Below are positions 1-18,312 of a stretch of DNA of 18,312 nt, piece after piece. The notes beneath the pieces were generated by a model, which did no database searches, was not told the DNA's origin, and was given only the letters and a program-made list of their open reading frames with translations. Position 1 is the stretch's first letter, and every line of letters starts with the position of its first letter. The stretch is from assembly GCA_012034575.1 (NCBI GenBank), contig JAAUPF010000142.1, positions 1 through 18,312 of the forward strand. The letters are read 5' to 3'. The DNA comes from Richelia sp. CSU_2_1 (GTDB taxonomy: Bacteria > Cyanobacteriota > Cyanobacteriia > Cyanobacteriales > Microcoleaceae). Position numbers and translations under genes: made by a program.

Positions 1-480
1 GCCGAGACCTATACCAGCAGTTGGGCAAAGAAACTGATGTTGCCAACCTGTGGGGCTGGATATCGAATTGTTATCGAGATTGGGGCAAGTATCAGCAAGC
101 TTTGGAAGCAGAACAGCAGGATTTAGCAATTCGTCAACGGCTGGATGACCAGTCTGAGATTGCACATTCCTATTATCAATTTGGACGAATCTATCAAGCA
201 TGGAACAAATATGCAGAGGCGATCTCCCATCACGAACAAAGCCGAGACCTCTATCAGCAGTTGGGCAAAGAAACTGATGTTGCCGATCTGTGGTACTGGA
301 TATCCGATTGTTATCGAGATTGGGGTAAGTATCAGCAAGCTTTGGAGGCAGAACAACAGGATTTAGCGATTCTTCAACGACTGGATGACCAACTCAATAT
401 TGCCAATGCCTATCGGAAGCTAGGCAATATTTATGACGCATGGGAAAATTACGAGACAGCCATTCAATACTACCAGCAAA
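1..480 (+). repeat. Near-identical 240-bp tandem duplication inside the TPR gene (1-240 vs 241-480). A degenerate third copy starts at 481.
   Basis: The nucleotide strings gccgagacct(a/c)tatcagcagttgggcaaagaaactgatgttgcc...atcagcaagctttgga(a/g)gcagaaca(g/a)caggatttagc recur at 1 and 241, encoding the same 80-aa block. Confidence 0.9.
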
Positions 481-1106: not shown

Positions 1107-1216
1107 CGATACATATTTACCCCCTTTATTTTCACCGACAAACGTAGGGACACGGTACTGCCTCATTGGTGTCAACTTAGGCTTGAAACCCTTGATAACT
1201 CTCGTTGTCACCTGAA

Positions 1217-1383
1217 TCTAGATCCCCCTAAATCCCCCTTAAGAAGGGGGACTTTAAGAGTGCTTCCAGTCCTCCCCTTAAGAAAGGAGATTTTAAGAGT
1301 GCTTCCAGTCCTCCCCTTAAGAAAGGAGATTTTAAGAGTGCTTCCAGTCCCCCCCCTTCTTAAGGGGGGCTAGGGGGGATCTA
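1217..1383. repeat. Composite intergenic repeat. A 39-bp unit (tccccttaagaaaggagattttaagagtgcttccagtcc) occurs three times in tandem. It is bracketed by inverted repeats (gatcccccta ... taggggggatc) and by C-run/G-run palindromes (cccccttaagaaggggg, cccccccttcttaagggggg).
   Basis: Read directly from the sequence. It lies between two convergent genes (the TPR gene ends at 1106 and the hydrolase gene ends at 1483), so it may act as a bidirectional terminator structure. Confidence 0.8.
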
Positions 1384-1482
1384 ATCTTAATCGCCAAACT
1401 GCAATCTCTGACTACCTTTAACCTTAAATTGACACTAATGGACTGAACCTAAGTCCCTACAATCGGAGACTCAACCCGAACT

Positions 1483-2523: not shown

Positions 2524-2682
2524 AACGATTTATTTTCCAGTGAATTGCAGCAATAATTAAAGCCCACATAAAAAATCTCGAATTCCTCGCAAATCTCTCT
2601 CCCTACTCTTTCTCTGCGCCCTCTGCGCCCTCTGCGGTAAAAAAAGATCGCAAACTAGCAGATTCGAGTATAATCAACAATA

Positions 2683-3459
2683 ATGACTCAAGCATCATTT
2701 TTGGCAAAGTTATTTCAAAGATTTGTCATGGCTCAAGAAAAAGATCGGAGTTCTACTAGCAATATTTTCCAACGCAGCTTGTGGTTCCTGTCGATCGTCC
2801 TGTTAATCGCCCTCTTAATTGTAGCAACTAGATCTGCTGCCGTCCAAGATATTTTAAGAAGCCTGTTAATGCGAATCGAGGCTTTAGGCATTTGGGGACC
2901 GATCGCATTTATAGTTACTTATAATTTAGCTACCGTGCTGTTTGTACCCGGTTCGGTACTGACGCTGGGCGGGGGCGCGATTTTTGGCTTGTGGTGGGGT
3001 ACGGTTTACGTATTTGTCGCTTCTACTTTAGGTGCTACTTTAGCTTTTTTAATCGGTCGCTATTTGTGCCGCGATCGCGTGGTAAAATATATGGCAGGTT
3101 ATCCTAAGTTTCAAGCGCTCGATCGGGCAGTTCATCAAGAAGGATTAAAAATAGTTTTTTTGACTCGCCTCTGTCCTTTGTTTCCGTTCAATTTATTGAA
3201 TTACGCTTTGGGAATTACTCGGGTTTCTTTAAAAGATTATGTATTGGGTTCGAGCGGCATGATTCCAGGAACTGTAATGTATGTTTATTCTGGTTCTTTG
3301 GTGGGAAGTATGGCAACAATTTGTACGATCGATCGGCCGGAAACTCTGCAAGCGCAAATTGCGAATTGGTCAATTAATGTTATCAGCTTGCTTGCCACTT
3401 GCGCGGTCACTGTCTTGATTTCTAGGATTGCTCAACAAGCTTTAGATGAAAGTATTTAA
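2683..3459 (+). CDS. TVP38/TMEM64 (DedA, VTT-domain) family inner-membrane protein.
   Basis: It is a multi-pass hydrophobic protein with the family signature region LTLGGGAIFGLWWGTVYVFVASTLGATLAFLIGRYLCRDRV. Members of this family are frequently paired with mercuric-reductase-like oxidoreductases. Confidence 0.8.
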   Translation: MTQASFLAKLFQRFVMAQEKDRSSTSNIFQRSLWFLSIVLLIALLIVATRSAAVQDILRSLLMRIEALGIWGPIAFIVTYNLATVLFVPGSVLTLGGGAIFGLWWGTVYVFVASTLGATLAFLIGRYLCRDRVVKYMAGYPKFQALDRAVHQEGLKIVFLTRLCPLFPFNLLNYALGITRVSLKDYVLGSSGMIPGTVMYVYSGSLVGSMATICTIDRPETLQAQIANWSINVISLLATCAVTVLISRIAQQALDESI

Positions 3460-3538
3460 TTAGAGCAAATGCCCGATATATTAGAAGACAAATAATGTCG
3501 AATATCAGGGCAGGCACGGGGCACTACCCCTACCACAG

Positions 3539-3575
3539 GTCAACTGTCAACTGTCAACTGTCAACTGTCAACTGA
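3539..3575. repeat. Heptanucleotide tandem repeat (CAACTGT) in about five copies, STRR-like.
   Basis: The sequence reads ggtcaactgtcaactgtcaactgtcaactgtcaactga. It sits 18 nt upstream of the oxidoreductase start. Confidence 0.9.
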
Positions 3576-3592
3576 TAGAAGAGGATTTGTTC

Positions 3593-5128
3593 ATGTCGCA
3601 TTCAGCAGCCGAAGGCGTAACTGTCCCCCCGATGGACGAACACAATCAAAAATTAATCTCCTATTTACATCCGCCGGATTGGGTAAATCCGCAGCCTGCT
3701 AGCAGTTACAATCTAGTAGTAATTGGTGCGGGACCGGCCGGATTAATTGTCGCTGCGGGGGCGGCTGGATTGGGTGCAAAAGTTGCTTTAATTGAGAAAC
3801 ATTTAATGGGCGGCGACTGTTTAAACGTCGGTTGCGTGCCTTCAAAAGCTTTAATTCGATCGGCCCGGGCTGTTGGCGATATTTGGAATGCGGGTAAATT
3901 TGGGGTTAATGTTGCTAACAACCCAGAAGTTGATTTTGCCGCAGTTATGGAAAGGTTGCGCCGGATTAGGGCGGATATCAGTGATGTTGATTCAGTTGAA
4001 CGCTATCAAAATCAATTAGGAGTTGATGTTTTTTTAGGTTCCGGTCGTTTTACTAGCAACAATACTGTAGAAGTTGCGGGTCAAACTTTGCGCTTTAAAA
4101 AAGCAGTAATTGCCACAGGGGCGAGGGCTTTACAGCCGCAAATTCCCGGCTTGCAAGAAGCTGGATATCTGACTAATGAAACTGTATTTAACCTTACGGA
4201 AAAACCCCCGCGTCTGGCAGTAATTGGTGCGGGTCCGATCGGCTGCGAATTGGCTCAAGCCTTTCAGCGTCTGGGTTCGGAAGTTATATTACTGCACAAA
4301 AATGCTCATATTTTGGACAAGGAAGATATTAGTGCGGCAGAAATCGTCCAGCAAGTTTTTGTCAAAGAAGGAATTCAATTAATACTTGAATGCCAAATCT
4401 ATCGCGTGGAAAAAACAGATTTAGGGAAAGTAATTTACTATCGATCGCGCGGTCAAGAAGCATCAATAACAGTAGATGAAATTCTCGCGGGTGCGGGACG
4501 TTCTCCAAACGTTGAAGGACTAAATCTAGAAGCTGTCGGCGTGCGATACGATACAAAAAAAGGCGTATTTGTCAATGACAATTTGCAAACTACAAATCCC
4601 AAGATTTATGCTGCTGGCGACATTTGCATGAGCGAAAAATTTACTCACGCCGCCGATTTTGCCGCCAGAATAGTCATCCAAAATACTCTGTTTTTCGGGC
4701 GCAAAAAACTCAGCGATTTGACAATCCCTTGGTGTACCTATACTGACCCAGAAATCGCGCGGGTGGGAATGGGCGATCGAGAATTGCAAGCAAAAGCGAT
4801 CGACTTTGATACATTTGTAATTCCTTTCGATAAAGTCGATCGGGCAATTGTTGACGGCGAAGATGAAGGATTTGTCAAAATTCACGTCAAGAAAGGCAGC
4901 GATAAAATATTAGGTGCAACTATTGTAGCGCGACACGCGGGCGATACGATCAATACAATTACTTTCGCAATGACAAACAATATCGGATTGGGAAAAATTG
5001 CGAGTGTCATTCACCCGTATCCGACGCAAGCCGAGGCAATTCGCAAAGCTGGAGATGCTTACAATCGCACTCGTTTGACGCCATTTGTGAAGAATTTGTT
5101 TAATAAATGGCTGGCTTGGACGCGGTAA
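3593..5128 (+). CDS. Class I pyridine nucleotide-disulfide oxidoreductase (dihydrolipoamide dehydrogenase / mercuric reductase-like, without the NmerA domain).
   Basis: The FAD-binding motif is VVIGAGPAGL. The redox-active disulfide is GGDCLNVGCVPSK. The NAD(P) site is AVIGAGPIGCELA, and the C-terminal dimerization motif is HPYPTQAE. The ATG at 3593 lies 8 nt after the GAGGA at 3581, so it is preferred over the TTG at 3587. Confidence 0.9.
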   Translation: MSHSAAEGVTVPPMDEHNQKLISYLHPPDWVNPQPASSYNLVVIGAGPAGLIVAAGAAGLGAKVALIEKHLMGGDCLNVGCVPSKALIRSARAVGDIWNAGKFGVNVANNPEVDFAAVMERLRRIRADISDVDSVERYQNQLGVDVFLGSGRFTSNNTVEVAGQTLRFKKAVIATGARALQPQIPGLQEAGYLTNETVFNLTEKPPRLAVIGAGPIGCELAQAFQRLGSEVILLHKNAHILDKEDISAAEIVQQVFVKEGIQLILECQIYRVEKTDLGKVIYYRSRGQEASITVDEILAGAGRSPNVEGLNLEAVGVRYDTKKGVFVNDNLQTTNPKIYAAGDICMSEKFTHAADFAARIVIQNTLFFGRKKLSDLTIPWCTYTDPEIARVGMGDRELQAKAIDFDTFVIPFDKVDRAIVDGEDEGFVKIHVKKGSDKILGATIVARHAGDTINTITFAMTNNIGLGKIASVIHPYPTQAEAIRKAGDAYNRTRLTPFVKNLFNKWLAWTR

Positions 5129-5244
5129 TTTGAAATGTTTTACCAAATCCCGTAGGGTCGGGTTCACCCAGAATCTCTGGGAAAAATGAATCATATAATA
5201 AACCCGCCCCTACCCCACCAACAATACTAATTTACCATCTCATT

Positions 5245-5829
5245 TTACGTTTCTGTTTCTGTTTCAAATTGAACGCCTTCATACAAAAGTTCGATCGGCA
5301 ATTCAAATTCAACACTTGATAAAGTTATAATGTCTCCCGCAGCGTAAGGATAGTACAGCCACATTCTACCTTCTCCCCGACAGTAACGTTCAACAGATAC
5401 TTTTTCAGAATCAATCAAGATATACTCTTGCAAACTCGTAATTTTCAGGTAAGCAGCGAATTTTTCATCTCTATCTTTTCCGCTGGTACTGGGGGAAAGA
5501 ACTTCCGCAATTAGTTTAGGATTCTGAATGAATTTGCGGGAATTGAGGTCTTGAGGATCGCAACTAACTGTGACATCGGGATAGTAGTAACAGCTTTGAG
5601 AACTGATTTGCAATTTCACATCTAATACGTTAATTCTACAGCCTCTGGAACGCAGATGCGGGTACAAGACAGTGTAACAATTAAGTGCAATATCGTTATG
5701 AGGAATTGTATTCTCCATCCTGGCAAAAACTTCGCCGTTGACATATTCGTGACGCATCTCTTGTTGGGCTTCCCATTCGAGATATTCTTCAACGGTCATT
5801 TTTTGGGGTGTTTGGGAAATAGCTATCAT
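5245..5829 (-). CDS. Uma2-family (DUF820) putative restriction endonuclease-like protein.
   Basis: The conserved N-terminal region MTVEEYLEWEAQQEMRHEYVNGEVFAM is typical of the Uma2 family, which is abundant in cyanobacteria. The start is taken as ATG 5829 (MIAIS...). The ORF stays open up to 5898, and ATG 5799 (MTVEEY) is an alternative start. Confidence 0.7.
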   Translation of the reverse strand: MIAISQTPQKMTVEEYLEWEAQQEMRHEYVNGEVFARMENTIPHNDIALNCYTVLYPHLRSRGCRINVLDVKLQISSQSCYYYPDVTVSCDPQDLNSRKFIQNPKLIAEVLSPSTSGKDRDEKFAAYLKITSLQEYILIDSEKVSVERYCRGEGRMWLYYPYAAGDIITLSSVEFELPIELLYEGVQFETETET

Positions 5830-5897
5830 AATAAAATTGCTTTCAATGTTATTTGGATTGTAGCATAATTGGCAGGTCGATCGCACCCACAAAACCA

Positions 5898-6746
5898 TTA
5901 AAAATCCCCTTCATCTACTTGAAAAACAGTCAATCCCAAAGATCGCCACCTATCAACAACTTGCTGGCGATCGTCCAACACAAATTTAATGTTATATTTT
6001 CCATCAATATGCTGTCGGTAGAACTCCTCTTTAATAATTGAATCTTTCCGCATATCTCCGGTTTTCCGCATATAAAGCGCGGCATAATTCACCTCATATT
6101 GCTCCAACCATTTTACAGTTTGAGGCTGACAGTCATCCGTCCTTCCCGAGACTACAATAATCTTCACGTCGGTTTGCCACTTGCGGACGGTATCTAAAAC
6201 AGGCTGATTCGGTAAATCGCGATCGCACGTAGTAGCATCGAAAGGATTTCTACCGTTTAGAAGTGCTAAAGTACCGTCCATATCCACAATAATTGCATCG
6301 GGTAAATCCGGGTTGTATTCCGGTGCGGGAACGGGAACGCGCACGTACTGATTGTACATTTTCATTATCACATCTTTGCCCACAGAATTGAGCCTTTTCA
6401 AATCCCGTTTAATACATTCCTCTACCGGAACTTGCAGAAAAGAATCGTTAACTTCAACGATGGCTTTACCTTTAACTAACTCCTTGATATGCTCGATGTG
6501 GGGGCCGAAATTAGTATCGTCAACAATCACGTGCTTGCCACTTTCCAAAGCCATCAAAATAATCGTATCTCTCAACTGCACGATAAACTTTTCATTTGCA
6601 GGCGACCAATGAGAAGCGTGAGCCATTTCTCGCAATAAATCTTTATTTGTACGCACCCATCTTGCAGGTTCAGACAACAGCAATTCTCTCGCAAATTGAG
6701 ACTTTCCAGAAGCAGGCAAACCGACAAGAATCAAAACTCTTTTCAT
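5898..6746 (-). CDS. pnk: Bifunctional polynucleotide 5'-kinase / 3'-phosphatase, phage T4 Pnk-like.
   Basis: The N-terminal P-loop is ILVGLPASGKS (T4 GCPGSGKS). The C-terminal HAD/DxDGT acyl-phosphatase motif is AIIVDMDGTLA (T4 VIFDVDGTLA). The proteins are collinear to the C-terminus (IIVVSGR...DMRKDSIIKEEFY...DDRQQVVDRWRSLG...VDEGDF vs T4 ...DTRKDDVVKEEIF...DDRTQVVEMWRRIG...ASGDF). Confidence 0.9.
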   Translation of the reverse strand: MKRVLILVGLPASGKSQFARELLLSEPARWVRTNKDLLREMAHASHWSPANEKFIVQLRDTIILMALESGKHVIVDDTNFGPHIEHIKELVKGKAIVEVNDSFLQVPVEECIKRDLKRLNSVGKDVIMKMYNQYVRVPVPAPEYNPDLPDAIIVDMDGTLALLNGRNPFDATTCDRDLPNQPVLDTVRKWQTDVKIIVVSGRTDDCQPQTVKWLEQYEVNYAALYMRKTGDMRKDSIIKEEFYRQHIDGKYNIKFVLDDRQQVVDRWRSLGLTVFQVDEGDF

Positions 6747-6803
6747 GGTAATTGGTAATTGGTAATGGGGAATTGGGAATTAGGAATTGGGAATTGGGAA
6801 TTG
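6747..6803. repeat. Heptanucleotide tandem array (GGTAATT in three copies, then GGGAATT/AGGAATT in five copies) immediately abutting the pnk start codon.
   Basis: The sequence reads ggtaattggtaattggtaatggggaattgggaattaggaattgggaattgggaattg. It starts one base after the CAT (ATG on the minus strand) at 6744-6746. Confidence 0.9.
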
Positions 6804-6824
6804 TAAAACACCAAAGTAGATGCT

Positions 6825-6955
6825 GTAGGTTGGGTTGAGCGAAGGCGAAACCTAACAGCTTATTTTAGGCGAAACCAACAGCTTATTTTCAATAAAGAAT
6901 TGGGAAAGAGTTGGGCGGAGTGAAACGGAGGGTTCGCGGGTTCAACCCAACCTAC
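6825..6955. repeat. 14-bp perfect inverted repeat (gtaggttgggttga / tcaacccaacctac) enclosing a 23/24-bp tandem direct repeat (ggcgaaacc(t)aacagcttatttt, twice).
   Basis: Read directly. The arms are at 6825-6838 and 6942-6955, and the direct repeats at 6844-6867 and 6868-6890. It lies between rnl and pnk. Confidence 0.8.
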
Positions 6956-6969
6956 ATAACTACATATTT

Positions 6970-8055
6970 CTACAAACCTAAATTGATGTAATCCAAACCC
7001 AATAACTCCTCTATTTTATGAATCGTAACATCGCGCAAAGCTTCTTTCACGCCCGCAACTCTGCGAGCCCGCAAAGAAAACAAAATTCCCGAATAAGGCA
7101 AATGTTTGATAGCTAAAGCAAAGTCTTTCTGCACGGCAATATGTTCGTGCTGTCGGTAAACTTCCTCAATTTCTTCAACTAAACGTTGATATTTGTCTTT
7201 AACTTTTTGATAAAGTTCAGTCCATTCAGGAAAATAAGCTAAAAATTCTTCTCCTTCATTAGTCAAAACAATTTCTATCATTCGGCGCGTAGAAAACCCT
7301 TCCCGAAGGTGAGAAATCGCGACATATTGGGGAGACTTAACCTTAACTCTGTTGAAGTTAGCATCGCAAATAATATACCCTTCTGAATCCATCGGATCTA
7401 AATGTTGGGCCGCTTCGATAACTTCTTTCCAGCTAGTTAAAGGATAGGATGCTACCAATTCCCAGCCGTATTTATCAGCCCAAAAACTCGGATCGCTTTC
7501 CCGCAGTGTTTGAATATTGCGAACCCCGTGCAAGGCAATTCGATTGTTAGCTTGCTGGACGACTATTCTATTGTAAGGCGTCATCAATTCAAATATGAAA
7601 CACTCGTCAGTAGCTGACGGCAATTGATATCCCAATTCTTGCCAAACTTTCCAAAACAGTTCGGCAAAATTAAAGCCAAAACCGTTAACTTCGCCCGCTG
7701 CATCGGGAGTGCCGCTCGTTTGGACTCTCCATTCTCCTTTGTAAAAATAGAGTACAGTCAAAGAACCATCTAATTTTTCATAAACTTTGGCAGTTTTCCA
7801 ATCAATTGCAGCGGCGTGGCCTTCCCCGTAATTAAAAAATTTGTCGTAGGGATAAGAAACAATCTGCCAATCTTGAGACTCATCTAAAATAATGCCCCGA
7901 CACTGCTGCACTATTTTTTCGCCCAGCGGGGATTCTATCTGCGAGTATTTCAGACAAGCTAACTCGGGATATTGGCGGTGGCGGGTAACTTTGATCTGAT
8001 AAGTCGCGCACAAAGTTTCCAATCCGTGCTGGCGTAAATACTCTTGCAGTTCCAC
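6970..8055 (-). CDS. rnl: ATP-dependent RNA ligase, phage T4 Rnl1 family.
   Basis: The nucleotidyltransferase motif I is YEKLDGSL with Lys94 (T4 Rnl1 TKEDGSL, Lys99). Flanking blocks also match T4 Rnl1: QCRGIIL (ECRGIMF), DKFFNYGE (EKFFNLNE), IFELMTPYNRIVV (NFEFVAPTNRIV) and EGYIICD...VKVKS..YV..H (EGYVAVM...FKIKSDWYVSLH). The start is GTG at 8055, preceded by AGGAG with a 6-nt spacer. Confidence 0.85.
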   Translation of the reverse strand: MELQEYLRQHGLETLCATYQIKVTRHRQYPELACLKYSQIESPLGEKIVQQCRGIILDESQDWQIVSYPYDKFFNYGEGHAAAIDWKTAKVYEKLDGSLTVLYFYKGEWRVQTSGTPDAAGEVNGFGFNFAELFWKVWQELGYQLPSATDECFIFELMTPYNRIVVQQANNRIALHGVRNIQTLRESDPSFWADKYGWELVASYPLTSWKEVIEAAQHLDPMDSEGYIICDANFNRVKVKSPQYVAISHLREGFSTRRMIEIVLTNEGEEFLAYFPEWTELYQKVKDKYQRLVEEIEEVYRQHEHIAVQKDFALAIKHLPYSGILFSLRARRVAGVKEALRDVTIHKIEELLGLDYINLGL

Positions 8056-8246
8056 GATCGACTCCTAAATTTGTCGCCTGATATATCTTATATGATAATG
8101 CCTGTTTTTGGCAATTAGTCAATAAAATTTAACCCGATTTTTTTCCTGAATGCCTGCTGTCAATTTGGTAGTTAGGAGTACGATCGTACATAAGTAAATT
8201 CAGTCCTGAGAAAAATAGGGCTGTTGCAATATCGAGGAACAAGACA

Positions 8247-8819
8247 GTGACGAACAGATTCTTTCTTTTGGCAACTTCTGCTTGTATATTGACTGCATTA
8301 ATGCCTGCAACGCAAGTTTTTGGAGCGCGTGAAGTGTCGCCGCAATTGGCGCTGCAAGTGCCGGAACCGCAACAAATTGCTCGCACGGATACTGCGGTGC
8401 CTGTCAGAGACATTTTGGCAAAATTAAAAGGTAAAACGCAAGTACCAATTTTGATTCCTAACAGGATTCCTGTCTCCCAAAAACTTTACTATCAAACTCA
8501 AGCCAATGCAGACAGCTATACTATTTCTCTGGAGTTTACACCAGATTGCCGGGGTACGGGAGCTTGCACGCTTGGAGAATTTCGAGCGCAAAAAGGCGGC
8601 GAGTTTTCTACAAGAATAGAACGAGTAACCAAGACTTTAAAAAACGTGCAACTGGCGGGCGGAGTTAAAGGAGTTTTTCACAACGGTTGCGGGGCTTATT
8701 GCACGGCAAATCTGGAATGGAAAAATAAAGGTTTTATGTATACTGTAGCGATTAGAAACGGCCGGGAGGCAGATCTAATTAAAATTGCAAATTCTGCAAT
8801 TCAAGCTGGAATTAGATAA
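8247..8819 (+). CDS. Secreted hypothetical protein with a conserved Cys-containing C-terminal domain (paralog of 9193..10194).
   Basis: The start is GTG with GAGGAA 7 nt upstream. The N-terminal signal peptide is MTNRFFLLATSACILTALMPATQVFGA. The C-terminal approximately 130 aa align with the next gene: KGKT.VP...P.R, AGG.KG.FHNGCGAYC, IANSAI..G.R. Confidence 0.6.
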   Translation: MTNRFFLLATSACILTALMPATQVFGAREVSPQLALQVPEPQQIARTDTAVPVRDILAKLKGKTQVPILIPNRIPVSQKLYYQTQANADSYTISLEFTPDCRGTGACTLGEFRAQKGGEFSTRIERVTKTLKNVQLAGGVKGVFHNGCGAYCTANLEWKNKGFMYTVAIRNGREADLIKIANSAIQAGIR

Positions 8820-8923
8820 AATTTTCGGTAAACTATTGCAGAAAATCTGTGGGGATGGTTCGTAAATCTACAGCAGATTGCAGGTTCATCAAGTATAACC
8901 GTCGATCGAACCATCCTCGCAAT

Positions 8924-8964
8924 GACACGGCAGTGCCGTGTCCCTACCTGGGATTTATTTTTAG
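8924..8964 (+). terminator. Candidate intrinsic terminator after the first secreted-protein gene.
   Basis: A perfect hairpin gacacgg-cagtg-ccgtgtc at 8924-8942 is followed within 12 nt by ttatttttag. Confidence 0.35.
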
Positions 8965-9192
8965 CTCGCGCTTCATGAAAAAAGCTGTATAACTGATATA
9001 TTACAACAATACTAATAAAGGATTATTCTTGTGGTCGGGCGGGTTTATTTGATTTGTTTGCTGCTTTGAAGGTCCTTGGCGAATCCGCCCCTACATAAAT
9101 CGTAAAATTTGAGTGAAAATTTTTGGTAAAAACTTTAATAAAATATTTAAATCCTGCGTTGTTTTTGTTGACCTATTTCAAGGGAGATCGGA

Positions 9193-10194
9193 ATGAGAAA
9201 AAAATGGCTGTTTGGGGCATTTTTTTTGGGTGCAGTCACTGCTTTTACGATCGCACCTGCAACATCAAACTCAGCCCTAGCAAGGACGCAAGTCTCGATC
9301 GCAGAAATTCGCTGGTTGAATTATCCTACCCGAGATAATTGGCAATCGATCGAACTGATTGTACCCGATCGCGACAATACGAAAAAAGTCGATCGACTTA
9401 AGTTATCTTTGTACGACTTTCATGTTGCTAAGATGTTTGAGATTTCTCATTTTTTGTGCCAGCGCGATCGCACAGTTGTCGGATACAATTGGTCTTATCA
9501 ATTAGCAAATGGCAATATTGAAATCGGACGCTACAAAATTAGCTGCACCCTCGCCCGCCAAACAGCCGCAACTTACGGATTGGGGAAACCAGAAACAACG
9601 ACCATCCGTCGCAATTTCCAACTCCCAAATAACCGCCAATCTGTGGCTGTGGAAAAATATTTAATTCCTACTTTCAATATCGTTAAAAACAGATTTTCAG
9701 AGTGGCGGAAGTTTGCCAAACAATTACGGCCGATCGAAAATTCAGGCACGCAAAAAGCTAACAGTTCTTTTCCGGCAAATAACATATTTAAGCAAATTAA
9801 AGGCAAAACGCGAGTGCCTGTATTTCTGCCCAGCAGGCTGTTTTTACCTGCCACTCAGCAACTCGAATTTGACGTGCAAGCAGGCTCCCACGGTTACATC
9901 GTGAGAATGTATTTAGGTAAAGGATGCCGCACGAGAACTTGCTATTTCGGGACGATCGAAGCTATCAGAAGCGAACCCTTTTCACCGCCTTCTAATTTGC
10001 CGCGCGATACTTACAGGAGTATAGAATTAGCAGGGGGAATGAAAGCGATGTATTTTAATAAATGCGGTGCTTACTGCAATGCGTTTGTTGAGTGGCAAAG
10101 GTTGGGCGTACTGTATCGAGTAAGCAGGAAAAATGGCACGCAGCAAGAAGTCGTACAAATAGCAAATTCCGCAATTCGATCGGGACAACGATAA
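9193..10194 (+). CDS. Secreted hypothetical protein. It carries an N-terminal extra domain and the same C-terminal Cys-containing domain as 8247..8819.
   Basis: The start is ATG with GGGAGA upstream. The signal peptide is MRKKWLFGAFFLGAVTAFTIAPATS. The C-terminal block FKQIKGKTRVPVFLPSR...AGGMKAMYFNKCGAYCNAFVEW...IANSAIRSGQR parallels the upstream gene. Confidence 0.6.
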   Translation: MRKKWLFGAFFLGAVTAFTIAPATSNSALARTQVSIAEIRWLNYPTRDNWQSIELIVPDRDNTKKVDRLKLSLYDFHVAKMFEISHFLCQRDRTVVGYNWSYQLANGNIEIGRYKISCTLARQTAATYGLGKPETTTIRRNFQLPNNRQSVAVEKYLIPTFNIVKNRFSEWRKFAKQLRPIENSGTQKANSSFPANNIFKQIKGKTRVPVFLPSRLFLPATQQLEFDVQAGSHGYIVRMYLGKGCRTRTCYFGTIEAIRSEPFSPPSNLPRDTYRSIELAGGMKAMYFNKCGAYCNAFVEWQRLGVLYRVSRKNGTQQEVVQIANSAIRSGQR

Positions 10195-10197
10195 ATT

Positions 10198-10244
10198 CAG
10201 TTGACAGTTGATAGTTGGTAATTGGTAATTGGTAATTGGTAATT
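10198..10244. repeat. Heptamer repeats: ACAGTTG-type units (the reverse complement of CAACTGT) followed by GGTAATT in four copies.
   Basis: The sequence reads cagttgacagttgatagttggtaattggtaattggtaattggtaatt. It uses the same heptamer units as the arrays at 3539 and 6747. Confidence 0.9.
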
Positions 10245-10361
10245 CTCCAAATCTCCCAATCTAAAATCTAAAATATTCCCCTCTCCCCCTTTTCCTTTTT
10301 CCTTCTGTGAGGATTTGAGTAAATTGCTGTACAATTAAACTGTATCTAAAAACTCTAAGTT

Positions 10362-10799
10362 TTATTCTGGACAAACAGAATGGTCGCGATCGAACCAAAC
10401 GATGTAGTAAACAGATTGAACGCGAAACCCAAATATCCGTTTTTTCTCATCAATTCGCATCTCTGATAATCTTTCATCTTCAGGAATATTGTCAGGCAAA
10501 GTCGGATGGGTGTCAATTAACTTATAACCCGTTCCTACTGATTCATCTCGTTTTTTTGAGCCATGACCTTTGATTTGAGCCCAAGTATATTTTTCAATTT
10601 TCTTCAGTCCTGCAATTAGGTCATTGATTTCTGATGCTGTCCAATCGGACAGCAGCCAACGATTTTTATCTGCATAGGTAAATCGGAAGCTAGGATGCTC
10701 GTTATCTGTACTGCTTGGTTGGCTTAACAGGGTTGCTGCTTCTGGAATTTTTCTTTGTTGTTTTTGAGGTGGTTTTGGTATTTGATTCTTTTTTCCCAC
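10362..10799 (-). CDS. Small protein translationally abutting the Panacea gene. It is a putative toxin partner with a RelE/ParE-like C-terminal signature.
   Basis: The GTG start lies directly after the TAA of the upstream gene (TAAGTG). The C-terminus SEMRIDEKKRIFGFRVQSVYYIVWFDRDH resembles the RelE/ParE pattern (R.D...R.i..v....v.il.i.H). No other family was recognised. Confidence 0.4.
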   Translation of the reverse strand: MGKKNQIPKPPQKQQRKIPEAATLLSQPSSTDNEHPSFRFTYADKNRWLLSDWTASEINDLIAGLKKIEKYTWAQIKGHGSKKRDESVGTGYKLIDTHPTLPDNIPEDERLSEMRIDEKKRIFGFRVQSVYYIVWFDRDHSVCPE

Positions 10800-11255
10800 T
10801 TATGCCTCTACCAAAGATGAATAGCAGTCTTTCATATCATCGTGAGAGATGATGTTAGTTGATGTTTCCGCAGGTTCTAATCCCTTGCGAGCGTTTAACC
10901 AAGGCATCTCTGAGTGCGTTAGTTCTGCCAAATGTTTAGCACTTAATTCTCCATAAGCATTCCAAACTTCTTCGAGAACTTCGAGTTCATCTTCCTCAAA
11001 TTCTCCATCAAAGTTATCGGGAACGGGAATATCGCTATATTTGTAAGCTTTGTATTCATTCCAAACATCGCGGACAACAGGGCCGGAAACCCAAGCTTCA
11101 ACATCTTGAAAAAATAGCGGCTGGCTTCTAAAAACTAAACTCCAAGCTTGAGCGTAATACACGAGCTTTTGCAATTTGAGCAGAGAAATAGTATCGCCTG
11201 ATTCTCGATCGACCCGACATAAAAAGTAACGAGCTACATCCAGAGCACTTTTCAT
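10800..11255 (-). CDS. Panacea-domain (DUF4065, SocA/PanA-like) putative antitoxin.
   Basis: The core is ALDVARYFL....ISLLKLQKLVYYAQAWSLVF..QPLFFQDVEAWVSGPVV.DVW, which matches the DUF4065 consensus (KLqKLlYyaqgw ... eAW.yGPV). The ATG at 11255 is preferred. The ORF stays open to a TTG at 11282. Confidence 0.6.
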   Translation of the reverse strand: MKSALDVARYFLCRVDRESGDTISLLKLQKLVYYAQAWSLVFRSQPLFFQDVEAWVSGPVVRDVWNEYKAYKYSDIPVPDNFDGEFEEDELEVLEEVWNAYGELSAKHLAELTHSEMPWLNARKGLEPAETSTNIISHDDMKDCYSSLVEA

Positions 11256-11385
11256 AATTTGAGAATTTGAGTAATTTGACAAATTTACTTGTAATTATAA
11301 GATATTTGCTGGTTTAAAAAGATTTTGGATTGTGGATTTAAGATGTGAGATTTTTTTTGAGTTAGAACTTATATATGGGGACGGT

Positions 11386-11450
11386 GAAACCGGGTTTGTG
11401 GAGAAAATACTTCGTGGCGGCCAACAGCAAAGATAAAAAACCTGGTTTCT
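11386..11450. repeat. Small palindromic element: gaaaccgggttt ... aaaacctggtttct, related to the element at 13809-13872.
   Basis: Read directly. The arms are reverse complements of each other with one mismatch. Confidence 0.6.
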
Positions 11451-11706
11451 AGGCGTGGGAGTGCGTCAGTCCCCCGTGTTAGCCAATCCCGCATCGCCCG
11501 CAGCATTTCGCCAACAATCTCGATGGCGGCTCAGTTTGCTAGACCAAATGCTTGACTGGAAACACAAGAAAGCATTGCTGCTACTTGCGATCGAAATCTG
11601 ATATTTCTATTTTATCGCCCGAATTGCGCCAACCAGCAATTAAAGTCCCCACCTGCGGTAGGCTAGATGGGGTAAATATATCTGCTCCTAAATAAGCATC
11701 GTTCCT

Positions 11707-12678
11707 ATGTCTCCGATCGCATCTGCCCCCTCCAGAACCGTCCGCATCGGTTCTCGCAAAAGCCAACTCGCCCTCGTTCAAACTCATTGGGTGCAAGCAC
11801 AGCTTCAGAAACACTTTCCCGAACGTACTTTTGAAGTCCACACGATGGCCACGCAAGGCGATAAAATTCTTGATGTCGCCCTAGCCAAAATCGGCGATAA
11901 AGGACTTTTTACAAAAGAATTAGAAACGGGAATGCTGAACAATGAAACGGACTTTGCCGTTCATTCCCTCAAGGATTTGCCTACCAATTTGCCCGAAGGT
12001 TTAATTTTAGGATGCGTCACCGAACGGGAAAATCCTGCTGACGCCCTCGTAGTTCACGAAAAACACAAAGACAAGCAACTCGATACCCTGCCAGAAGGTG
12101 CTGTTATCGGCACTTCTTCCCTGCGCCGGCTCGCCCAATTGCGCCACCATTTCCCTCATTTTGAATTTAAAGATATTCGCGGCAATCTTAACACTAGACT
12201 CGCCAAATTGGATGAGGGCGGTTACGATGCAATTATTTTAGCAGTGGCGGGATTGGAAAGATTGGGAATGAGCGATCGCATCCATCAAATTATCGCTCCC
12301 GAAATCTCTTTGCACGCTGTCGGACAGGGTGCTTTGGGGATTGAATGCCGCGCCGGAGATCCAGAAATTCTACAAGTAATTAAAGCTTTAGAACATTCGG
12401 AAACCGCCCAACGGTGTTATGCCGAACGCGCATTTTTGCGGGAATTGGAAGGCGGCTGTCAAGTGCCGATCGGCGTTAATACTAACATAGAAAACGGTCA
12501 ATTAACTTTAACCGGCATGGTAGCCAGTCTCGACGGCAAGCGGTTAGTCAAAGACACTGTAACAGGTGCTGCCGAAACAGCCGAAATGTTGGGAATTGAC
12601 CTCGCTCACCGCTTGCGCAAACAAGGAGCGCAGGAAATTTTAGAGGAGATTTTTGTCGAAGTTCAGCGCGGTTCTTAG
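11707..12678 (+). CDS. hemC: Porphobilinogen deaminase (hydroxymethylbilane synthase).
   Basis: The classic HemC N-terminus is [14 protein letters not shown]. Further HemC blocks are [50 protein letters not shown] and ALG.ECR. Confidence 0.95.
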
Positions 12679-12934
12679 AGCGTGAAAATCTCTAGCCTTC
12701 ACTCAGCTTACCAGCAGTAAAAATGACTTGCCAGCCGCTGCTAACCAGCAGGTAAAGTCGCAGACAATTGTAGGTTTCAGGTGGAAAAGTCTAGATGGTG
12801 CGGAACTTACTAATGACCTCTATATATGGCGCGCAAGTAGGAGCAACCCCCCGCGGTTGCCCTCTCCCTCCAGCTACAATTAAGCATCCCGCAAAAGCAA
12901 CCAGCAATTTATCTAAATTGGGGAAAAGCAAAAT

Positions 12935-13765
12935 ATGAGCGATCTGGAAAGTACACTAAAGTTAGAAGTGGAAAAAGTTCAGCAACTTTACCGCAAAATG
13001 GAGGCCGATCGCGAAGCTTTGCAGCAGCAAGTGAAGGAACTCAAAACTCATTCGGGCAACTTTGCTGGTGCAGTCGATCGAGTCTTGCCCTCCGTAGTTT
13101 CAGTGTATGTCATGGATTGGGATTTAGAAGAAGAAATTTCCTCCGGCAGCGGCTTCTTTGTCTCCCCCGATCTCATTGTAACCAACTATCACGTAATCGA
13201 AGATATTGCCGAGGAAGATTATTTTTACGAAGAAGATGAAGTAGAACTTGTTTTAGTGGAAACTTACGGCGGACAAATGCGGCTGGCCGAAGTAGTTTTT
13301 ACCGGCAATGCGGAAGAAGATTTAGCTTTGCTATTAGTTACGGATTTTATCATCAACCCGGAAACCGGAGAACAAGTAGAATCTCCTCAAGAATATGCAC
13401 CCCTAGAACTGTCTTTTGATGTCAAAGTGGGAGATCCAGTAATTGCGGTAGGAAATCCTCTAGGGGAGTTTGCTGCAACTGTAACCCAGGGCATTATTAG
13501 TGCAATTCGCGAACCCGACGAGTATGAAGAAGGAGAGGACGAAGACAGCGATATTGCGGAAGTGAAAATATTGCAAACTGATGCGGCGATCAATCCGGGA
13601 AATTCGGGCGGCCCGTTAATTAATGCAGCCGGTCAAGTTGTCGGAGTGAATACGTGGGGTTGGGAAGAAGCCGACAGCATCAATTTGGCAATTTCTGCTG
13701 AAGCTTTGGATGACTTTTTAGCCGGATTTGAGGAAACTTTTGAAGGCCAACCCGAAGAAGAATAG
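12935..13765 (+). CDS. Trypsin-like (S1/HtrA-like, no PDZ domain) serine protease. It is cytoplasmic, with an N-terminal coiled coil and acidic inserts.
   Basis: The catalytic triad contexts are GSGFFVSPDLIVTNYHVI (His), EEDLALLLV (Asp) and TDAAINPGNSGGPLIN (Ser). There is no signal peptide. The N-terminal 40 aa are heptad-like (LKLEVEKVQQLYRKMEADREALQQQVKEL). There are Glu/Asp-rich stretches (EPDEYEEGEDEDSD, EGQPEEE). Confidence 0.85.
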   Translation: MSDLESTLKLEVEKVQQLYRKMEADREALQQQVKELKTHSGNFAGAVDRVLPSVVSVYVMDWDLEEEISSGSGFFVSPDLIVTNYHVIEDIAEEDYFYEEDEVELVLVETYGGQMRLAEVVFTGNAEEDLALLLVTDFIINPETGEQVESPQEYAPLELSFDVKVGDPVIAVGNPLGEFAATVTQGIISAIREPDEYEEGEDEDSDIAEVKILQTDAAINPGNSGGPLINAAGQVVGVNTWGWEEADSINLAISAEALDDFLAGFEETFEGQPEEE

Positions 13766-13776
13766 TCTGTTATATT

Positions 13777-13895
13777 TGACATCTTGCAGCATTCTCAATA
13801 ACCAAGCGAGAAACCGGGTTTCTGATGAAAAATATCTGTTTTTATGCAGAGTTTTTTCCAGAAACCCGGTTTTTGACATTGCTGCAAGATCTGAG
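13777..13895. repeat. Nested inverted-repeat element. The outer arms are atcttgcagca / tgctgcaagat, and the inner arms are agaaaccgggtttct / agaaacccggttt.
   Basis: Read directly. It sits 12 nt after the protease stop codon and could fold into a long stem-loop. The same gaaaccgggttt motif recurs at 11386. Confidence 0.7.
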
Positions 13896-14057
13896 TTATA
13901 TCTGAGATCTTTCACCTTTCTCAATAGGCAGCAGCTTCACTTTTTGGATGTAACATTTTGTAGTTTTGTTACAAGTTTGTAACTCCCACAAGAGAGAGAG
14001 TACGATCGACACAACATAACTGATACAGGATTCATCCACGCAGTAATTTGAACAGCT

Positions 14058-14133
14058 ATTTGCAGGTAAGGTGCGCAGTGCGCACCCTACAAATTATTTG
14101 CCGGTAAGGTGCGCAGTGCGCACCCTACAAATT
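14058..14133. repeat. Two abutting copies of a 38-bp unit (atttgc(a/c)ggtaaggtgcgcagtgcgcaccctacaaatt). Each contains a perfect 17-bp palindrome, GGTGCGCAGTGCGCACC.
   Basis: Read directly. It lies about 95 nt upstream of the MVP start codon, so it is a candidate dyad-symmetric operator or hairpin pair. Confidence 0.8.
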
Positions 14134-14225
14134 ACAAGTCAACTGTTTAAAAACCTCCATTACAATCGCCATCCAAGTCGCATCTCAACTACCAGCAAAA
14201 CAGCCTACAACCAACTATTAACATC

Positions 14226-16709
14226 ATGAATACCAGCGAACTAAAACGCGATAACAAAGGTGAAACTTTGGGAATTTCTAGCGGCATTATTCGCCTGAAG
14301 CCGCAGCAATACATTCATGTCATCGATAACAACACGGGCATTACCAGGCTAGAAGTCGGCCCGCAAACAATCACTTTGCGCGACCACGAACGGCTGATTT
14401 TAAGACCGGAACCGATGCTAATCGTGCCGCCGCGCTACTATTGCATTGTTGCTAATCCCGTCCTCCGTGATGCAGAAAATCAACCGATTGCTGACCCTCA
14501 CGGACAAATTAAATTGCGCTACGGCGATGCAGAAGTTCGCTTTGCTCAAGAACCTTTTGCCCTGTATCCGGGAGAAGAATTAGAGCAGGATGTGACTCGC
14601 TTGCAGGTTGTCGAAACCAATCAAGCATTGCGCCTCCGAGCACTGCGAGATTTTGCAGATACTCCTCCCATGCGGGGCAGCCACGGGGGGATTGCCCCTA
14701 CAGCAACGGCAGGAGAAAGTGAATCTGAAGGTCAAACAATTAATCGTTTGGCTGGGGATGAATGGCTGTTTGAAGGGCCGGGAACTTATTTGCCGCGCGT
14801 GGAAGTTGAAGTTGTAGAAACGGTGAAATCTGTAGTAATTAAACCGAATCAAGCTTTGCGCTTAATCGCCCGACAATCTTGTACTGACAGGCAAGGAAAC
14901 CGCCGCCGCGCTGGTGAAGAATGGTTGGTGAGGGATGAAGGTGCTTATTTGCCGGGAGTTGATGAAGCTGTTGTCAACATTATTAATGCTTGTGTTTTAA
15001 CGGAACGGAAAGCCCTGCATTTGAAGGCTAAACGCACTTTTACTGATGTTTTCGGGCGGCAGAGAAAAGCGGGCGATGAATGGTTGGTGACGTTTGAAGA
15101 TGCAGAAATTCACATTCCCGACGTGTACGAAGAAGTAGTAGGAGAAGTAGAAATTGCTACTTTGGGCGATCGTCAATGGTGTATTGTTCTCGATCCAATT
15201 GATGCGGATGGTAAGCCTCAATTGGGACTGAAAGAAGTCCGCCAGGGTCGAGCTTCTTTTTTCCTGCATCCGGGAGAATCTTTGGAAGGCGGGATTCAAA
15301 CAGTTTACGTTCTCAGCGAACAAGAAGCACTGTTATTGAGAGCGAAAGAAGCTTTTAATGAGGGAGAAAGCGACAATCTAGTTTCCCACCAACCGGGGGA
15401 TTTATGGATGATTTCCGGACCGCGCGATTACATTCCCCGCGTCGAAGTAGAAGTTGTGGAAAAGCGAAAAGCGATTCCTCTGGATAAGAATGAAGGCATT
15501 TACGTGCGCGATATCCAAACAGGAGAACTCCGATTAGTGGGCGGGCCGCAAGCATATATGCTGAGTCCTTACGAGGAACTTTGGGAAAAAGAATTGCCGC
15601 CAGTTGTTGAAGAATTGCTAGCACAAAAAAGCGATCCGATTTCCGATCGCGGAATGCAGCAATTGCGCGGTGTTGCCCACTCGGAAATGCAGGTTTTGCG
15701 GGATAAAACCAGGGCAGTTGTGTTCCACGTTCCCCAAAATTCCGCAGTGCAAATTCACGATTACAAAAATCGCACTGCCCGCACTGTATTCGGGCCGGAT
15801 TTGGTGATGTTGGGGCCGGATGAAGCGTTTACAGTTCTCAGTTTGTCTGGCGGCAAACCGAAAAAGCCGAATGCGATTAAATCTTTAGCTTTGTTGCTGG
15901 GTCCAGATTTTATGACTGATGTTTTTACTGTAGAAACATCGGATCACGCTCGCTTGCAAATTCAGCTATCTTATAACTGGTATTTCGATCTCGTGCGGCA
16001 CGACGAACAAGCGGCGGCAAAACTGTTTCAAGTTCCCGATTTTGTAGGAGATGCTTGCAAGGCAATTGCCTCTCGGGTTCGCGGTGCAGTTGCGGGAGAA
16101 AAGTTTGATGAATTCCACCGCAATTCGGCACGAATTATCCGCCATGCTGTATTTGGCGTCAGCGAAGACGGTCGGATCGGAGATGAATTTCGGTTTAAAA
16201 CTAACAGTTTGGTCATTACTAATATTGACATTCAATCAGTCGAACCGATCGATGAAGCAACGTTAAAAAGTTTGCAAAAATCGGTACAAATTGCAATTCA
16301 AATTACCACTGACGCTCAAGAAGCTGCTGCGAAGCACGATGCAGCCCGCATCGAACAAGAGGCAAAAGCTAGATTGGAAAGACAGGCAATTGTAGATAAG
16401 GGTGCGGCGGAATCCGAACGCAAAAATCTGTTAGAATTGCAGGCAGAAAATATTGCGATCGAATCTACCGGGCACGCGACAGCCGAAGCGAGGGCGAAAG
16501 CAGAAGCAGCGCGAATTCAAGGCGAATTAGCAGTGAATTTGGCACAGCAGGAAGCGGAAGCAGCCAGAATTCGCGCCGAGGGAGAATTGGCGCAAATGAG
16601 GGCCAGACAGGAAGCAGAATTAGCCCACCAACAAGCCCTAAGCACTCTAGAAATTGAGAAAGCCCAGCGAATGGCGGAAATTACCAGTGCGGAATTCCGG
16701 GAAAAGTAG
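14226..16709 (+). CDS. mvp: Major vault protein (MVP) homolog, full set of domains (MVP repeats, shoulder, cap-helix).
   Basis: It is collinear with metazoan MVP from the N-terminus: QQYIHVIDNNTGITRLEVGPQT...VPPRYYCIVANPV (human [25 protein letters not shown]...VPPRHYCTVANPV). Near-exact blocks include AGDEWLFEGPGTYLPR, NEGIYV, TVLSLS, LLGPDF and VPDFVGDACKAIASRVRGAVA. The Ala/Glu-rich C-terminal coiled coil (AKHDAARIEQEAKARLERQ ... ESTGHATAEARAKAEAARIQGE ...) matches the cap-helix. Confidence 0.95.
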   Translation: MNTSELKRDNKGETLGISSGIIRLKPQQYIHVIDNNTGITRLEVGPQTITLRDHERLILRPEPMLIVPPRYYCIVANPVLRDAENQPIADPHGQIKLRYGDAEVRFAQEPFALYPGEELEQDVTRLQVVETNQALRLRALRDFADTPPMRGSHGGIAPTATAGESESEGQTINRLAGDEWLFEGPGTYLPRVEVEVVETVKSVVIKPNQALRLIARQSCTDRQGNRRRAGEEWLVRDEGAYLPGVDEAVVNIINACVLTERKALHLKAKRTFTDVFGRQRKAGDEWLVTFEDAEIHIPDVYEEVVGEVEIATLGDRQWCIVLDPIDADGKPQLGLKEVRQGRASFFLHPGESLEGGIQTVYVLSEQEALLLRAKEAFNEGESDNLVSHQPGDLWMISGPRDYIPRVEVEVVEKRKAIPLDKNEGIYVRDIQTGELRLVGGPQAYMLSPYEELWEKELPPVVEELLAQKSDPISDRGMQQLRGVAHSEMQVLRDKTRAVVFHVPQNSAVQIHDYKNRTARTVFGPDLVMLGPDEAFTVLSLSGGKPKKPNAIKSLALLLGPDFMTDVFTVETSDHARLQIQLSYNWYFDLVRHDEQAAAKLFQVPDFVGDACKAIASRVRGAVAGEKFDEFHRNSARIIRHAVFGVSEDGRIGDEFRFKTNSLVITNIDIQSVEPIDEATLKSLQKSVQIAIQITTDAQEAAAKHDAARIEQEAKARLERQAIVDKGAAESERKNLLELQAENIAIESTGHATAEARAKAEAARIQGELAVNLAQQEAEAARIRAEGELAQMRARQEAELAHQQALSTLEIEKAQRMAEITSAEFREK

Positions 16710-16725
16710 AGGCTATCGGGCCTGA

Positions 16726-16935
16726 AACTTTGAAAGCAATGGCACAAGGCAGATCGTTGGCTTCGACAACATCGCCGCCATCAAGCCGCTGCTCACTGAC
16801 GGTCGCGTGCTCGCCACTGCCGACCAGCAAGGCGACAAGCTCGCTGTTTTCGGCATCGAAGCCGCGCTCAAAGTGCTGAAAGACAAGACCACACCGGCCG
16901 ATCAACAAACGCCGGTGGATGTAGTAGTGAAGTGA
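16726..16935 (+). pseudogene. 3'-terminal fragment (about 70 codons) of a periplasmic sugar-binding protein gene (RbsB/LacI-type PBP). It has GC3-rich codon usage unlike the rest of the window.
   Basis: The open frame encodes ...QIVGFDNIAAIKPLLTDGRVLATADQQGDKLAVFGIEAALKVLKDKTTPADQQTPVDVVVK*. This is the typical C-terminal hinge and end of ribose/xylose-type binding proteins (VVGFD...DGK.LATVAQ.P...G...A..LKG.....VD..VV.K). No N-terminal part or start codon is present. Confidence 0.5.
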
Positions 16936-17004
16936 GATTTAGGATACGTTTCAGAGAAAATAGCTTTTGAGTAATTTAAACTGGCAGTTTAGATTTCTCA
17001 AAAC

Positions 17005-17612
17005 ATGAAACCAGTAAATCGAGACATTGAAAAGCATCTGATGCTCGCAGCCAAGAGCTTTCCAGCAACGGTTGTCACCGGCCCACGAAGATCAGGGAAG
17101 ACTTACTTATTGAAGCGTCTGCTCCCTGCGGCGGAGTATTATCTGTTTGAAGACCCAGACATCATCTCGCGTTTCAGGCAGGACCCACAGGGCTTTCTGG
17201 ATGGAGTGAAACCGCCGGTGATTCTGGATGAGATTCAAAACTTGCCGGAAGTGTTTAACTACGTCCGCAGTCGCATTGATGCGCACCCGCGCAAGATGGG
17301 GCAGTGGTTCCTCACGGGCTCACAGGAAGCCGGGTTGATGCGGAATGTGACGGAGTCCATGGCTGGTCGAGCCGCGGTGCTGCAACTCCGCCCGCTCTCA
17401 ACGCGGGAAAGCCCCAAAGTGAATCTGTTCCGGGGGGCTATCCCGAGGTTGTGGCGCGGCCAGGTGCGCGCGGCAATGGTTCAATGCATACGTGCAGACC
17501 TATCTCGAGCGGGACGTGCGGCAGGTGACGGCCGTGCGAGACCTCGCGACGTTTCGGCGGTTCCTGGCCTTGACCGCGGCGCAGACGGGGCAATTGCTCA
17601 ACAAGACGACGA
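17005..17612 (+). pseudogene. AAA-ATPase of the AAA_14/DUF4143 family. It is disrupted by at least two frameshifts and C-terminally truncated.
   Basis: In frame 1 the sequence GPRRSGKTYLLKRL...VILDEIQNLPEVFNYVRSRIDA...WFLTGSQEAGL...LQLRPLS is present. The family motif GGYPEV then appears in a second frame (17304 ORF). The motif YLERDVRQV..RDLATFRRFLALTAAQTGQLLNKTTIA appears in a third frame (17492 ORF). Nothing family-like follows about 17612. It is GC-rich. Confidence 0.55.
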
Positions 17613-17829
17613 TCGCCGCGGGAACCATGTGTTCAGGCAGAGTCTGCCGCAGGTGCGACCGGCGGGATAGAGTTGAAAAAACCGGCGGAACCAGTGGTCG
17701 CAGTTGGGCCGGTGGTGCACGGGCCGCAGCGGATCGAGCACGGCCACTGCGCCGAACTTAGCCGCCTCCGAAGCACCGTAGGCTCGCTGCTCCACCGCAC
17801 CGCCGTAGGCGGCAAATGTGTTGAGTTTC

Positions 17830-18258
17830 GTGGCATGTTGGTATTCTACTGGAACAATCCACCATCACCTGTTTCAGGCAGTCCGACAAGTGAATGGTTC
17901 AACTTTGTGGGCAAACCTACATTTGTTGTTCTGGTTATCATTATTTCCCTTTGTCACCGCATGGATGGGTAAAAATCACTTTGCTGCGTTGCCTGTGGCG
18001 CTTTATGGTGTGGTTCTATTATTGGCTGCGATCGCCTACTTCACTCTGACCCGCACACTTATTTTTTACCACGGTCAAGATTCCACACTTGCAAACGCTC
18101 TTGGTCGGAATTTTAAAGGCAAGTTATCGGTATTGATTTATGCAGTTACAATTCCACTTGCTTTTGCAATCCCTGGGCTTGCATGTGCATTATACGTTCT
18201 GGTTGCAGTTCTGTGGCTCATTCCCGATCGTCGTATTGAAAAGGCGTTGAACTCATAA
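17830..18258 (+). pseudogene. DUF1211 (TMEM175-like K+ channel family) membrane protein gene, missing its N-terminal part and carrying a frameshift near its 5' end.
   Basis: The family block is (F)YWNN | HHHLFQAVRQVNGSTLWANLHLLFWLSLFPFVTAWMGKNHFAALPVALYGVVLLLAAIAYF...ALGRNFKGKLSVLIYAVTIPLAFAIPGLACALYVLVAVLWLIPDRRIEKAL. The YWNN part is in the frame of the 17673 ORF, and HHHLF onward is in the frame of the 17818 ORF. The expected approximately 50-aa N-terminal TM segment is absent. It contains a HIP1 octamer (gcgatcgc near 18028). Confidence 0.55.
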
Positions 18259-18312
18259 AGTTCCATGTTCGATGCAACAAAAACCAGCTAACAAGCCCTC
18301 TGCACCAGAACG

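Follow-up and report, generated by a model that had tools for sequence, protein, structure and literature searches.

Does the organism behind this sequence really carry a shortened gene for the vault protein MVP, or was a complete gene broken on its way into the database? The window, by which we mean the whole stretch of DNA analyzed, is the entire 18,312-bp contig of the metagenome-assembled genome (MAG) 'Richelia sp. CSU_2_1', and its MVP homologue (annotated as 'colicin uptake protein' in cyanobacteria) is interrupted 1.6 kb from the physical end of the contig. The original prediction, made from the letters of the sequence, had reported a premature stop, MVP-like codons continuing in the -1 frame and an A-run at the switch point, and had offered a single-nucleotide indel or error and a gene in decay before the replacement of its 3' end as alternative causes. 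The evidence set out below indicates that the break is very probably an assembly artefact, namely a chimeric, low-quality and error-dense contig end produced during sequencing or assembly.

The premature stop and the missing C-terminus

The MVP open reading frame (ORF; positions 14226-16709, plus strand, 827 aa) was delimited from the ORF list and its translation, Pfam and orthologs. It contains Vault and Vault_2/3/4 repeats and then MVP_shoulder (PF01505, PF17794, PF17795, PF17796 and PF11978), all far over the curated cut-offs (E = 1e-17 to 1e-65), as well as a cap-helix coiled coil, in which residues ~692-827 align with 663-798 of the solved MVP chains. The translation ends in ...AEITSAEFREK, followed by TAG at 16707-16709. 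The sequence 'gggaaaag' occupies 16699-16706, within which the A-run of the window is four bases long (A4, 16702-16705). The final 46 nt of genuine MVP (16703-16748, plus strand) lie in the -1 frame and were recognized from their translation, from orthologs and from alignment to solved vertebrate MVP chains, in which they correspond to the end of the cap-helix (approximately rat MVP residues 799-813); the last few turns of that helix are thus out of frame with the rest of the protein. The -1 frame at 16703-16750 encodes 16 residues, the first 15 of which are identical to those of cyanobacterial orthologs.

To the question of how long the C-terminus should be, the orthologs gave a uniform answer. 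A protein search covering 5.8 billion proteins returned 2,538 relatives, and the best 120 of these were mostly cyanobacterial and 860-932 aa long, bar one partial record. The orthologs share 73-93% identity with the window protein across all of its 827 residues; their sequence in this region comprises a stretch of 33 residues and then (L/I)QSVLITDGKNPINLF..., and all of them extend ~58 residues further. Among the 23 proteins of the two closest 90% clusters (2 representatives and 21 members), all 22 with a complete C-terminus continue and none ends at EFREK. Since the orthologs share the residues found in the -1 frame and none of them ends at EFREK, the match is not a matter of chance. The stop, the -1 continuation and the A-run at the switch point are all present at the positions originally given.

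The same segment can be placed on the vertebrate structures. Once repaired (see below), the protein has 192 C-terminal residues that align end to end with vertebrate chain residues 663-854 (E = 1e-54), and the window stop falls at approximately residue 798 in vertebrate numbering, a point that the chain of rat and human MVP (solved vaults, for example, 4V60 and 7PKZ) runs past. The nearly invariant segment AGPEMQ.KLLQSLG..S.LITDG..P.NLF of rat and human MVP is also present in the repaired window protein, while the cap-ring segment AGPEMQ.KLLQSLG...ITDG..PINLF was not found in any frame of the window past 16748. As judged from its translation, the ORF as deposited stops short of the cap-helix end and contains none of the cap-ring segment. 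In the rat vault structure the cap-ring reportedly closes the vault, and a stop at ~798 would remove it. The domain order of the window protein (Vault repeats, shoulder and cap-helix) is that of the cyanobacterial MVP homologues, such as K9WB38 of Allocoleopsis franciscana PCC 7113 and F4Y3B4 of Moorena (Lyngbya majuscula), from which the window copy differs in being shorter at its C-terminus, uniquely so among the members with complete ends. Cyanobacterial MVP homologues have already been described (Daly et al., 2013, PMC3762200; Sokolskyi, 2019, bioRxiv 10.1101/872010).

Two near-identical sibling assemblies

An exact-product look-up with the neighbouring HemC and trypsin-like protease genes located two sibling assemblies of the same locus. 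One of them, L072 (GCA_012030855.1, JAAUVE010000027.1), is 99.59% identical to the window over 1710-16756, and the other, L069 (GCA_012032195.1, JAAURP010000281.1), is 99.71% identical over 10973-16756. The siblings are 98.9% identical to each other and represent two strain types; the substitutions that mark these types are found again in assemblies of separate runs. At the A-run both read GGGAAAAAGTAG (also given as GGGAAAAAGTAGAGGC), that is, five A's (A5) against A4 in the window; in the five-way DNA alignment and its indel list the difference appears at 16702 as 'GAATTCCGGG[-]AAAAGTAGAG' in the window against '[A]' in L072 and in L069. The premature TAG in MVP is hence due to a single-base deletion in the A-run. 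Past the break, L072 and L069 read ...GCACAAGCCGGACCGGAAATGCAGGC... (also given as GCACAAGCCGGACCGGAAATGCAGGCTAAACTT), which is the conserved MVP C-terminus, including the cap-ring segment that every ortholog with a complete end also has, and the final base that they have in common with the window is 16748. They are collinear with each other along the full 8,055 bp of L069, of which 2.3 kb lie 3' of the break, and both have an alpha-amylase gene on the opposite strand downstream of MVP, of which there is no trace in the window. Both the A4 deletion and the junction that follows it are private to the window. An exact 43-mer taken between the A-run and that junction had no match in the Joint Genome Institute (JGI) metagenomes.

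Inspection of 16695-16710 in independent assemblies, which had been recommended as a check, thus returned one extra A in each case, and the view that a one-nucleotide deletion or error truncates MVP gains from the A5 and complete C-terminus of two near-identical assemblies. The alternative, a gene already in decay when its 3' end was replaced, was not supported by the comparison: the inactivating lesion was not reproduced in the two assemblies that are 99.6-99.7% identical, the siblings are intact at this point, and a majority consensus drawn from the three assemblies gives an unbroken MVP ORF of 885 aa. It is because two near-identical assemblies carry an intact MVP end that we regard the break as an artefact rather than as gene decay. 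This consensus is a complete member of the cyanobacterial MVP homologues; an exact look-up of the repaired 885-aa protein in the protein collection gave no match, exact-product look-ups of the MVP, ATPase and TMEM175 ORFs of the window and of P0121 likewise returned no record, and no MVP protein is on record for L072 or L069.

The siblings are themselves not free of errors. Over 15 kb, 11 indels separate the window from L072, most of which alter the length of a homopolymer, and in the 5.8 kb over which the three assemblies overlap every indel is private to one assembly. Each carries a one-nucleotide indel of its own in MVP (the window at 16702, L072 at window position 15310 and L069 at window position 16276), and the deposited MVP frames accordingly stop after 827, 370 and 722 codons, respectively. 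Private indels of L072 are located, in window-equivalent positions, at 15310, 3079, 3735, 4204 and 8645, and those of L069 at 13828 and 16276; the VTT-domain and Pyr_redox (pyridine-nucleotide-disulphide oxidoreductase) genes are split in L072 and intact in the window. Single-base indels are a general error mode of the sibling assemblies, because each assembly has its own private frameshift and most of the changes are in homopolymer length. Errors of base calling or assembly account far better than three separate decays would for three private MVP frameshifts that are accompanied by frameshifts in other conserved and presumably functional genes.

A different explanation of the two frames would be a programmed -1 ribosomal frameshift or transcriptional slippage at the A-run, giving full-length MVP from two frames. 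The G GAA AAG at the switch contains an A_AAG motif, which is slippage-prone, as at dnaX-type sites, and the -1 frame stays in MVP for 15 codons. Against this, the gene is in a single frame in every ortholog, including the two assemblies that are 99.6-99.7% identical, the -1 frame enters unrelated sequence after its 15 codons, no Rfam frameshift element was found, and transcriptional slippage requires a longer run than A4. Given the uniformly single-frame orthologs and the lack of an Rfam element, we rejected programmed frameshifting, the chance of which appears negligible.

Anatomy of the contig end

Alignment with L072 and L069 places the first base unlike the native MVP continuation at 16749 (junction 1). 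Mismatches occur at 16749, 16751 and 16754, and the alignment with the siblings ends at 16756; because five of the eight bases after 16749 still match, by chance or microhomology, the break is placed within 16749-16757. The tail that follows (16749-18312, 1.56 kb) is composed of gene pieces, cut at both ends, from at least three unrelated sources, and the GC content along the contig end moves from 0.44 to 0.62-0.71 and back to 0.44.

The first piece (16750-16935, plus strand) is the 3' end, 61 codons and a TGA, of a putative GC-rich gene for a periplasmic sugar-binding protein, assigned from its translation, its collinearity with L074 (a 2.5-kb contig of another sequencing run) and its GC content at third codon positions, which is 0.71 as against 0.42 in MVP. 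Its +1 frame from 16750 reads QIVGFDNIAAIKPLL...VDVVVK*, the N-terminal part of the gene is absent, and the match to Peripla_BP_4 is weak (E = 0.009, 16 bits against a cut-off of 35.1, profile positions 211-257 of 258). The jump to a codon usage rich in GC at the third position and to the C-terminus of an unrelated, putatively sugar-binding protein, which the original prediction had described, is borne out, although the tail turned out to hold more than the end of one foreign gene.

The second gene piece (17005-17620, plus strand) is the 5' half of an AAA_14/DUF4143 ATPase, residues ~6-214 of ~400, as identified by Pfam AAA_14, tblastn and L074. Mapping by tblastn with intact homologues of 396-436 aa gave high-scoring pairs in frames 1, 3 and 2, which corresponds to two frame changes within ~17425-17475, one of them at a G6 run. 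The ORF at 17005-17670 is 100% identical to NJR25031.1 ('MAG: AAA family ATPase [Richelia sp. CSU_2_1]'), and homology to L074 stops at 17620. Positions 16750-17620 are collinear at 73% nucleotide identity with L074, a locus of another organism, in which the 3' part of a binding-protein gene is followed by an AAA_14/DUF4143 ATPase and then by a BPD_transp_2 ABC permease. The closest named relatives of the ATPase fragment are verrucomicrobial and its GC content is 0.6-0.7; the whole of 16750-17620 is predicted to derive from a non-cyanobacterial genome. A 23-mer scan yielded 30 loci but no near-identical donor of the ATPase fragment, all matches over >250 nt being at most 73% identical and one match of 80 nt reaching 82.5%; the loci did help to map the frame changes.

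Directly 5' of the ATPase start codon, and part of the foreign fragment, is an imperfect palindrome of ~40 nt (TTTTGAGTAATTTAAACTGGCAGTTTAGATTTCTCAAAAC, 16965-17004), for which hairpin prediction gave a z-score of only -1.75. By blastn it matches, on both strands, two sites flanking the ATPase in L074 and L075; in L074 the copies are at 185-221 and 1421-1457, and the second copy lies just 3' of the ATPase gene in L074 and L075. With a palindrome on either side, and set between the gene for a sugar-binding protein and that for its ABC permease, the ATPase gene resembles an inserted cassette. In both L074 (224-1404) and L075 (139-1319) the related ATPase is called as two overlapping ORFs (AAA_14, then DUF4143) that are split at the same point, and this split, found in assemblies of independent runs, may be a real frameshift or pseudogene in that organism.

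A GC-rich (~0.7) fragment of 193 bp comes next (17621-17813), whose pattern of GC content by codon position fits the minus strand. It had no Pfam match, and its best relevant phmmer match among 1.8 billion representatives was to one 68-aa protein (E = 4e-4). The last piece (17814-18258, plus strand) covers residues ~46-191 of 191, or the 3' two-thirds, of a TMEM175/DUF1211 gene from a cyanobacterium, identified by Pfam TMEM175, by P0241 (191 aa; 95% amino acid identity from residue 60) and by the cyanobacterial locus L076, to which 17814-18312 is 96% identical at the DNA level. The DNA alignment with L076 revealed three single-base insertions (G to GG, T to TT and C to CC) at ~17833-17860.

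The frame-breaking indels are concentrated in this part of the contig. Six of them (one in MVP, two in the ATPase and three in TMEM175) fall within 1.16 kb (16700-17860), whereas no broken ORF was seen among the ORFs checked in 1-16699, the lengths of which match those in L003. Between the MVP deletion and junction 1 there are 44-47 nt, and the insertions in TMEM175 are 20-50 nt from the junction in front of that piece (junction 3). For six indels placed uniformly, the probability that all fall within such a stretch is (1161/18312)^6, or ~6e-8, a value that is indicative only as the interval was chosen post hoc. It might be argued that the A4 deletion is a true strain polymorphism and that only the tail past 16749 is an artefact, and the lack of any other broken ORF in the first 16.7 kb, where the base-level error rate seems low, would fit such a mixed origin. 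Yet the deletion is found next to a chimeric junction, alters a homopolymer length in the way that the errors of the siblings and of junction 3 do, and would inactivate a gene that is intact in all orthologs with a C-terminus on record. We therefore consider this very unlikely.

The main competitor is a real and recent strain-specific event, in which illegitimate recombination swapped the 3' end of MVP for foreign DNA and left a pseudogene, the A-run deletion coming before or after. The deposited sequence does show exactly such an arrangement, the locus is plastic (acetate kinase lies downstream of MVP in L001, alpha-amylase in L072 and L069), and no fetched locus matches the window downstream of MVP. 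However, the event would have to post-date the ~0.3% divergence from L069 and L072, yet the inserted pieces already hold five frameshifts, grouped near the junctions. The pieces come from at least three sources, in both orientations, each cut at both ends; Pfam and a repeat scan of the window found no transposase, integrase or flanking repeat at the segment, which moreover forms the end of the contig. That each of the three siblings has its own private frameshift in MVP, and L072 frameshifts in further genes, also argues against it. On balance, such an event seems unlikely. The corresponding claim for the tail itself, that scraps from a Verrucomicrobia-like donor and relocated DNA replaced the cap-ring-coding end by very recent illegitimate recombination, we hold to be improbable.

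A patchwork of truncated, frameshifted fragments at a contig end points instead to misassembly rather than biology. Junction 1 joins pieces that differ in origin and composition, each truncated, and has no support in other assemblies. In this the window resembles known chimeric ends of MAG contigs, with a jump in composition, junctions confined to one assembly, truncated fragments of unrelated taxa, clustered errors and a position at the contig end. Several points weigh against the artefact. Unlike in those cases, the junctions show no long shared k-mer; none that would explain a de Bruijn-graph mis-join was found at junction 1, where there is only an ~8-nt imperfect match, and a look for repeats or microhomology at the junctions yielded nothing convincing. 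The junctions were judged from the assembled sequence, and a search for literature on the MAG project or its sequencing technology found nothing. As the body of the window has no broken ORFs, proneness to indels is shown for the siblings only. In nature, moreover, the ends of genes do undergo strain-specific rearrangement.

If the contig end is an artefact, the first 16.7 kb would be good Microcoleus-like cyanobacterial sequence and the last 1.56 kb a chimeric tail, with the A-run shortened from A5 to A4 and the 3' end of MVP lost at 16749 as two symptoms of one bad contig end. The native sequence would then read A5 followed by ...GCACAAGCCGGACCGG..., and the gene of the organism would be an intact MVP of ~885 aa with cap-helix and cap-ring. 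The technical cause may have been homopolymer-prone reads, a spurious extension of the graph at a point where the assembly is broken by co-existing strains, or both. We attribute the missing cap-ring segment to the assembly and not to the organism; in all likelihood, the window gene is an ordinary member of the cyanobacterial MVP family, its truncation is no biological feature and nothing here is biologically new.

The biological weight of the finding is accordingly small, and its value lies in curation, where it cautions those who annotate genes or survey their presence. With the MVP frameshifts of the window and its two siblings, surveys of vault proteins would miscount cyanobacterial MVP as truncated, pseudogenized or absent, and the foreign fragments of the tail would be misread as horizontal transfer into a cyanobacterium. 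Were the truncation real after all, the cyanobacterium would have either a naturally cap-less MVP or a vault gene that was inactivated very recently, and a natural MVP without cap-ring would bear on the closure of bacterial vault-like shells.

The body of the contig

Outside the tail, the contig shows synteny with Microcoleus/Oscillatoriaceae loci (L002 and L003), at 81-92% DNA identity. A Microcoleus-like body under a Richelia label suggests a problem with the taxonomic label or the binning. Just 5' of an oxidoreductase gene, at 3539-3577, there is a heptanucleotide tandem repeat (TCAACTG, ~5.5 copies); identical repeats occur in cyanobacterial loci L010, L016 and L002 and look like the short tandemly repeated repetitive (STRR) type. 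On the minus strand at 5245-8055, genes for a Uma2 endonuclease, a PNKP-like kinase/phosphatase (AAA_33 and HAD_PNKP) and a T4 Rnl1-type RNA ligase stand in a row that is kept in L003 and L072 and looks like an RNA-repair cassette. An antitoxin-like gene with a SocA/Panacea domain (10800-11282, minus strand, E = 1e-22) is directly followed by a 145-aa ORF without a Pfam match (10362-10799, minus strand), and the two (10362-11282) may form a toxin-antitoxin pair of the Panacea type. Short dispersed repeats (...CCCCCTTAAGAAGGGGGACTTTAAGAG...) at 1203-1300 recur in several copies, on both strands, in L002 and other cyanobacterial loci.

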